DNA of 4,039 nucleotides from a virus. Its lineage: Duplodnaviria > Heunggongvirae > Uroviricota > Caudoviricetes. Of this stretch, positions 2,654 to 3,780 are shown piece by piece; positions within the stretch are counted from its first letter, which is position 1; each line of letters starts with the position of its first letter. The stretch lies in the IMG/VR virus record IMGVR_UViG_2778261494_000010, one strand, 5' to 3'. The notes beneath the pieces were generated by a model. It made no database searches, was not told the origin of the DNA, and saw only the letters and a program-made list of their open reading frames with translations. Both the position numbers and the translations under genes were made by a program.

Positions 2654-3563
2654 TCAGCCGCCGGACGCAGTTCCGTAGTTCACACCGGTGATCACAGCCA
2701 CCGCCGCGGTACGGCGACGACGCCAGTTGATCCAGCGCTCCGCACGGATGGCCACGCTGCCGGTCTGGAACATGGAGACCAGCTCCACCGGTGACGGTGT
2801 GCTGCTGTCGCTGGTCGGTTCAGACTGCATCTCCAGTGACGCTTCACGGGACATATCCACCGCCACACCACCGTCATCCGCCAGATAAATATCCGGCGCA
2901 TTCACCAGTACCAGCTGGTCACCCACATACTGGGAGACAATCACCGGCAGCCCCTGGAAGGTCCCGCCCAGCAGGGTCATGTCCGGATATTCCTTCTGCC
3001 CCAGCGCATTTTTACGCATGGACAGCGCCAGGGCATTCGTGCTGGACATCAGCCAGACCGCACCGGTGGGCTGCAGATTTGCCGTCACAAACTGGCCAAA
3101 CGCGGCCTCGGCATCCGCATCCGGATTACCGCTTGACGCCGTGCCCTTCACATCATGGGTGATGGACGCAGGGGAGACATCTGCCACCGCCGCTTTTTTC
3201 GGGTCCACAAAGTCTGTATCCAGACGCGCCACCACCGCTTCCGCCAGCGCATATTCCCGGTAGTTTTCCTCTGTAGGTTATCAACACATCCTGCGCCTCT
3301 AAAATTACGGGACGCTTTTCCGGTAACGGACCATCCCCTTCACATAACCCGGCAGCAACATCCATGAAAAACTGCTTCGCCTGCTTTTTCGCCTCAGCTT
3401 CGTAAAACTCCAGCGTGGCACCTTCAGTACGGTCAAGACTAATCGCCACATCTGGCAACAACAGTGACGGATACCCACCAATTTCCAGTGCCACAGTAAC
3501 AGTAATCTTATCCGGGTAATTATTTATCCCTTTAACAACCAGTTCGTATTTTTTCTTCATCAC
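2654..3563 (-). pseudogene. HK97-fold major-capsid-like gene, frame-disrupted: an N-terminal ~100-aa frame (3563..~3264) joined by a +1 frame change to a C-terminal ~207-aa frame (3277..2654)
   Basis: The downstream frame is open from 3277 and ends ...VAIRAERWINWRRRRTAAVAVITGVNYG. Its C-terminal ~110 aa align by eye with the HK97 gp5 C-terminus (GLPVI..., ...VAVDMSRE..., E-R...TA.V.I.G). The upstream frame starts at GTG 3563 / ATG 3560, 1 nt after the holin stop, with GGGGAGAG as SD, and reads plausibly to about ITYRGK before degenerating into a Gly/Cys-rich tail typical of out-of-frame GC-rich coding. The two frames overlap at 3153..3277 and the switch maps to a GGAAAAC run (A4 at 3264..3267). 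Joined length of about 305 aa would suit a delta-domain-less HK97-fold capsid protein. Sequencing error, genuine pseudogene or recoding cannot be told apart here. Confidence 0.5.
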
Positions 3564-3564
3564 T

Positions 3565-3780
3565 TTACTCTCCCCGCGCCGCCTTACGCCGGTCTTCTTT
3601 AATCTTGAAATACAGGTTCGTCAGATATGTCAGCAGCCCAAACAGCAGACTCCCCAGCACGCCTATCGCCACCCACTGGGACGGAGAGACTTTGTCCAGC
3701 AGCTGCAGTAACCAGTATCCCGTCCCCACCGCTGACGTGGTGTATGACACACCCGTTGTGATTTTTTCCATCTGGTACAT
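3565..3780 (-). CDS. Class II holin (pinholin), phage 21 S / DLP12 EssD family, 71 aa
   Basis: Translation [71 protein letters not shown] is near-identical, from memory, to S21/EssD-type holins. It has two TMDs (a weakly hydrophobic Gly/Ala/Ser-rich TMD1 and a hydrophobic TMD2) and a charged C-tail. Start is ATG at 3780..3778 with GGGAGACGGGG upstream. The 106-aa ORF in the track (to 3885) is an artefactual N-terminal extension. Met1 and Met4 match the S21 dual-start (antiholin/holin) arrangement. Confidence 0.85.

Follow-up and report, generated by a model that had tools for sequence, protein, structure and literature searches.

The 4,039-nt stretch of DNA analysed here (hereafter the window) very probably derives from a defective lambdoid prophage of Escherichia coli O157:H7 whose late region has suffered a single illegitimate (non-homologous) deletion, and preserves its scar. 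On this explanation, the endolysin partner of the pinholin in the window went missing when about 6.5 kb were deleted, together with the spanins, the terminase and, from its 5' end, two-thirds of the capsid gene. The sequence-only reading of this DNA had described a phage 21-type pinholin without its SAR-endolysin partner, and this description was borne out, as the PF04971 holin gene is followed by an ORF of the DUF1327/YdfR family. All long ORFs with a database match lie on the minus strand of the window, and each assignment is supported by Pfam and PHROGs (Table 1).

Table 1. Features of the window, in minus-strand gene order (coordinates are those of the window; L001, L003, L004 and L014 are reference sequences)
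Feature	Position	Strand	Basis
3' end of a SASA-family (nanS-p type) sialate O-acetylesterase gene	3933-4039	-	window 3927-4039 = L001 16213-16325, 97.3%
Terminator-like hairpin (12-bp stem and T-run) in the esterase/holin interval	3819-3847	-	consensus match; putative function
Class II (phage 21 S-type) pinholin gene, intact, 71 aa, putative M1/M4 dual start	3565-3780	-	PF04971; phrog_9876/phrog_20 'holin'; hydropathy
ydfR (DUF1327), codons 1-103 of 114	3252-3560	-	PF07041; alignment with intact YdfR; RefSeq
Chimeric ORF, 135 aa, beginning MKKKYELVVKGINNYPDK	3153-3560	-	ATG at 3560
Deletion junction, one shared base (microhomology A/T)	3252	.	both blastn arms to L003, L004 and L014 include base 3252
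Out-of-frame tail of the chimeric ORF, 32 codons, capsid-gene DNA	3153-3251	-	translation; stop at 3153-3155
3' fragment of the prohead protease/major capsid fusion gene (codons 448-645 of 645)	2654-3251	-	PF05065; phrog_617; tblastn; RefSeq
Conserved phage ORF, 73 aa, function unknown (phrog_829)	2388-2609	-	capsid-portal interval, in all relatives
Portal gene, first ORF, 454 aa	1078-2442	-	PF04860, E=1.4e-80; phrog_2271 positions 1-451 of 859
Portal gene, second ORF, 245 aa	344-1081	-	phrog_2271 positions 669-859 of 859; RefSeq 'phage portal protein, frameshifted'
gp6-like head-tail connector gene	21-347	-	PF05135, E=9.8e-8; phrog_40

By sequence, the holin belongs to the S21 family. It matched PF04971 ('Bacteriophage P21 holin S') with an E-value of 8.5e-33 and 112.6 bits (cut-off 26) over profile positions 1-63 of 64, and was 97% identical to the holin of the Stx2c phage LC727876. 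When Kyte-Doolittle hydropathy was calculated in 15-residue windows, a strongly hydrophobic second transmembrane domain (TMD2) was located at about residues 36-58, with values above 2.0 solely at 36-53, and the first segment (residues 9-29) was weakly hydrophobic, with values below 0.9. The predicted arrangement of a SAR-like TMD1, TMD2 and a charged C-terminus is the pinholin layout, the topology being read from hydropathy alone. The start of the gene in the window encodes the putative dual-start motif MYQMEK (antiholin and holin forms of 71 and 68 aa, respectively). The 27 complete genomes bearing the deletion junction have ATA in place of the M1 codon and are annotated in RefSeq with the 68-aa form alone, so that this form alone would be encoded in EC4115. 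The gene that precedes the holin in the late operon is that of the esterase (RefSeq CDS 'SASA family carbohydrate esterase', L001 16219-18069), and the strong terminator-like hairpin 5' of the holin implies that Q-dependent read-through would be needed if the late promoter drives the holin.

The ATG of the downstream ORF (3560) lies four bases past the TAA stop of the holin gene, and residues 1-100 of its product matched positions 1-88 of 93 in PF07041 (DUF1327/YdfR; E=1.8e-45, 153.5 bits, cut-off 25). No lysozyme, amidase or peptidase match was obtained for this ORF (DUF1327 was the only Pfam family, and PHROGs returned families of unknown function only), and hydropathy gave no SAR, TM or hydrophobic N-terminal segment. 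Pfam, PHROGs and hydropathy thus agree with the earlier statement that the ORF has neither a SAR/TM segment nor a lysozyme motif, which also withstood the profile search for a muramidase, amidase or peptidase. The ORF consists of YdfR residues 1-103 followed by 32 residues translated from capsid DNA in the wrong frame. Past residue 103 the sequence diverges from YdfR, and the C-terminal motif ITGSLKTPP (conservation of at least 90% among 20 homologues) is gone; in EC4115 the remnant is labelled by RefSeq as 'YdfR family protein, incomplete, missing C-terminus'. In a model of the chimeric product, a cytosolic-type beta-beta-beta-alpha domain was obtained, and the predicted folded domain (residues 1-73) is kept whole. 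A weak similarity of this predicted domain of YdfR to the dsRBD and HicB folds was also observed.

YdfR/DUF1327 is conserved in pinholin/SAR-endolysin cassettes and confined to Escherichia/Shigella. Intact Stx phages, the O157 strain PV15-279 and K-12 Qin all carry ydfR after the holin and before the SAR lysozyme, at the same spacing. YdfR is an ordinary resident of the cassette and no replacement for the endolysin, and it is truncated here. Of the two possibilities raised before, that the cassette is incomplete or that it has been replaced, the former stands because the endolysin and spanins are missing, and the latter is not supported because YdfR is a normal resident.

Intact phages carrying both sides of the junction were found by searching each side separately against phage genomes. 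At base 3252 of the window, ydfR codon 103 is joined out of frame to codon 448 of the capsid fusion gene with a microhomology of 1 bp. In the Stx2c phage LC727876 (L003), window 3252-3849 corresponds to 2846-3443 and window 798-3252 to 9993-12447; the arms have one base in common, and base-level mapping shows that the window lacks 6,550 bp relative to this phage. The identical breakpoint was obtained with the Stx2a phage LC567829 (L004), whose arms are also 6,550 bp apart, and with O157:H7 PV15-279 (L014), whose arms are 8,763 bp apart because IS1203 and an antirepressor gene lie inside the interval. The reference phages are relatives with 94-98% DNA identity to the window arms, and what is said of the size and genes of the lost segment is therefore an estimate drawn from them.

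The interval in L003 contains, from the ydfR side, the last 11 ydfR codons, a 177-aa lysozyme (PF00959) and a 72-aa ORF, then Rz (PF03245) with embedded Rz1 (PF06085), a 74-aa ORF, an HNH endonuclease, TerS and TerL, and on the capsid side the first 447 codons of the 645-aa S78-protease/capsid fusion. The lysozyme aligns with the phage 21 SAR lysozyme (PDB 3HDE) from residue 9 (E=2e-17), which means that the N-terminal SAR segment is covered, and its N-terminus is Gly/Ala-rich and hydrophobic (YGLSAAVLALIGAGASA). From these SAR features and the presence of Rz/Rz1, the intact cassette is a canonical pinholin/SAR-endolysin/spanin cassette with ydfR intercalated. In PV15-279, the SAR-type lysozyme gene is itself split by IS1203 (L014 12140-13986), a second, independent loss of endolysin in this cassette. 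When the proteins of the intact relative were used as tblastn queries, the endolysin, Rz, Rz1, HNH, TerS and TerL were absent from the window, and PF00959 matched none of its ORFs; the earlier observation that nothing endolysin- or spanin-like precedes the portal is therefore correct. The same six queries found no homologue in about 60 kb around the EC4115 prophage, and accordingly no endolysin/spanin pair lies just outside the window, a possibility that had been left for checking.

On the other side of the junction, between the chimeric ORF and the portal, lies the capsid fragment, which has no start codon or promoter of its own. Its ORF as listed comprises 193 aa (2654-3235), with homology extending to base 3251, and matches roughly the final 40% of capsid profiles (positions 158-279 of 280 in PF05065 and 453-626 of 626 in phrog_617). 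By tblastn, residues 448-645 of the capsid protein are present at 99.5%, and the complete protease and HK97-type capsid protein of about 645 aa is not kept; the RefSeq label in EC4115 is 'phage major capsid protein, incomplete, missing N-terminus'. Because the conserved YdfR tail is missing and the capsid ORF lacks its 447 N-terminal codons, sequence comparison indicates that the event was a deletion here and not an insertion in other lineages. With a microhomology of only 1 bp and no IS end at the junction, it looks like illegitimate recombination.

The best DNA matches of the window were E. coli O157:H7 chromosomes, with 99.8-99.9% identity. Using a 241-bp query centred on the junction, we found the junction in 27 of 5,426 complete E. 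coli genomes, with 100% identity and full coverage and at the same chromosomal site. The carriers are all O157:H7 or O157:H7-like (EC4115, TW14359, SS17, SS52, JEONG-1266, TR01 and others), one or both halves of the junction occur separately in about 2,900 other complete E. coli genomes, and the exact chimeric protein is on record solely in this genomic context. In EC4115, the prophage adjoins a truncated ydfJ and stands in tandem with a second prophage. RefSeq lists its integrase, recE, J and portal genes as pseudogenes, its repressor is a short LexA-family fragment, and a gene for a Q-type antiterminator (DUF1133/Phage_antitermQ) is located upstream in the same prophage. With these pseudogenes, a truncated capsid gene and no terminase, endolysin or spanins, it is a defective (cryptic) lambdoid prophage. 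O157 is known to carry a pool of such prophages, and in strain Sakai all 11 lambdoid prophages keep the full lysis gene set despite many other defects (Asadulghani et al. 2009, PMC2669165). The loss of lysis genes described here would therefore be an additional decay step that is specific to a sublineage.

We propose that the ancestral late operon carried, in this order, the Q antiterminator, tRNAs, the nanS-p esterase, the pinholin, YdfR, the SAR lysozyme and Rz/Rz1, followed by HNH, TerS, TerL, the protease-capsid fusion, the 73-aa ORF, the portal, the connector and the tail genes. A deletion of about 6.5 kb at 1 bp of microhomology would then have brought ydfR codon 103 next to capsid codon 448, with a shift of frame. 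The operon would thereby have lost its endolysin, its two spanins, its terminase and the protease with the N-terminal capsid region, and an intact pinholin gene followed by the YdfR-prime chimera would have been left. Owing to the deletion, the locus is no longer a cassette with a cognate SAR endolysin. Channels of S21-type pinholins collapse the proton motive force, and murein degradation needs membrane-tethered SAR endolysins; the heptameric channels of about 2 nm formed by S21-68 depolarise the membrane and do not release a cytoplasmic endolysin (PMC9636201). Given this dependence on SAR endolysins, the locus, if transcribed, would depolarise the membrane and not lyse the cell. By analogy with the phage 21 literature, the pinholin alone would thus cause at most depolarisation if late transcription persists, and the prophage alone would be expected to accomplish neither cell lysis nor DNA packaging and to produce no particles. 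The earlier proposal that the element cannot lyse on its own is in line with this, as it lacks, besides the endolysin, the two spanins, the terminase and the greater part of the capsid gene. A residual role is possible and, by the same analogy, would require the endolysins and spanins of co-resident prophages.

Such a role in trans has been considered as an explanation for the presence of the gene, namely that the pinholin is retained because it contributes to lysis timing together with the SAR endolysins and spanins of co-resident prophages upon induction. The holin ORF is intact and has a Q-type antiterminator gene upstream in the same prophage, the 241-bp query matches 7-9 places in each junction-bearing genome, indicating several related prophages, and interactions among defective O157 prophages have been documented (PMC2669165). 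However, the prophage has a truncated repressor and an integrase pseudogene, the non-excisable Sakai prophages Sp11 and Sp12 showed no activity (PMC2669165), and an intact ORF of 71 codons is expected by chance after a recent deletion and does not speak for selection. We regard retention for this purpose as unlikely, and it would in any case complement the deletion and not replace it as an explanation. Less probable still is the second alternative of the sequence-only reading, co-option of the holin with a new cargo, in which YdfR-prime would take over from the endolysin as the partner with which the pinholin works. [quoted passage not shown] Nevertheless, intact cassettes that have their SAR lysozyme carry YdfR at this very place and spacing, the protein is described as cytosolic (PMC13232886) and has no signal, SAR or TM segment, and YdfR-prime has lost the conserved C-terminal motif and gained 32 nonsense residues. 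In addition, the same deletion destroyed the terminase and capsid genes, which fits decay and not adaptation. The proposal of a new cargo can therefore be set aside as very improbable. A broader form, in which the EC4115/TW14359 lineage keeps the pinholin and YdfR-prime as a working pair of genes under Q control, is also highly doubtful. If true, it would mean that a remnant of a lysis cassette was domesticated and not merely decaying, for example as a membrane-depolarising switch for suicide or abortive infection, or for modulation of RNase E through the retained YdfR domain.

The window as a whole is identical to no complete genome. Positions 3775-3926 (152 bp upstream of the holin, including the M1 and Y2 codons) do not resemble the 438 bp found in their place in each of the 27 junction-bearing genomes and are 100% identical to other prophage copies, such as a second locus in strain TR01. 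This difference could be due to recombination between prophages or to a short-read assembly join, and the junction at 3252 is unaffected by it. The match of this segment to a different prophage copy is also one of the points that might suggest that the junction is an assembly artefact, with two prophage repeats joined in a chimeric contig, together with the shortness of the window (4 kb), the highly repetitive nature of O157 prophages and the fact that many carriers of the chimeric ORF are contigs of 2-5 kb. Against this, 27 genomes that were finished independently have the junction with 100% identity at one and the same place in the chromosome, and an artefact could explain at most the 152 bp far upstream, so we consider this reading extremely improbable and retain the deletion as the explanation of the locus.

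Four known systems come close to the locus. The holin shares PF04971, a putative dual start and the predicted layout of two TMDs with the phage 21 cassette (S21, R21 and Rz/Rz1), and in intact relatives the lysozyme aligns with R21 (PDB 3HDE), including the SAR segment, and Rz with embedded Rz1 is present. The window differs in that the endolysin and spanins are deleted and in that ydfR is intercalated in its lineage; phage 21 itself is not known to carry ydfR, and unlike this lineage the Stx2 phage 1717 has none. K-12 Qin (essQ-ydfR-rrrQ-rzpQ/rzoQ) is likewise a decayed lambdoid prophage at the ydfJ site with the same holin-YdfR order and spacing, but Qin retains the lysozyme and spanin genes and has lost the head genes, whereas the O157 prophage has lost the lysozyme and spanins and retains most tail genes. 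The phages Stx2c_PV98-693 (LC727876) and Stx2_EH2201 (LC567829) have the same gene order in the late operon and 94-98% identity in both arms, and differ in keeping the 6,550 bp and in having 3-4 copies of a 162-bp repeat. The defective prophage pool of Sakai (Sp1-Sp18) similarly includes lambdoid prophages with frameshifts, deletions and IS insertions, but the full lysis set of the 11 lambdoid ones contrasts with the loss in the sublineage of 27 genomes (PMC2669165).

The event amounts to ordinary prophage decay, and RefSeq already labels the genes on either side of the junction as incomplete. What looked like an orphan pinholin is the trace of a deletion and of little import beyond bookkeeping, for which the exact breakpoint is now given, and this breakpoint could be used as a lineage marker for O157:H7 strains of the EC4115/TW14359 type. 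A more interesting question, though not specific to the window, is posed by YdfR as a regular member of pinholin/SAR-endolysin cassettes, and a 2026 paper describes its binding to RNase E and possibly to RNA.

Several observations were made in the head genes. Besides the chimerism of the downstream ORF, the sequence-only reading had overlooked the 3' capsid fragment before the portal and the split of the portal gene into two ORFs. The two portal ORFs overlap by ATGA (1078-1081) and map on one PHROG profile of 859 positions. The same split is present in phage 1717, Stx2_EH2201 and PV15-279, and is therefore widespread in this phage group. The second portal ORF contains a tandem repeat of 162 bp (54 aa), which is present in one copy in the window (798-916) and in 3-4 (3.3-4) copies in intact Stx phages (L003 12329-12933), and this copy number accounts for the difference between products of 245 and 407 aa. 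Phages of this group carry the protease-capsid fusion gene ahead of the portal (L003 8654-12167; window 1078-3251), the reverse of the usual order of portal, protease and capsid, and this arrangement is probably the variant head organisation of Sp6, Sp9, Sp10 and Sp12 (PMC2669165). Finally, a weak match to CBM_5_12 (E=5e-4, below the gathering score) was seen at residues 197-217 of the 245-aa portal ORF, an odd site for it.
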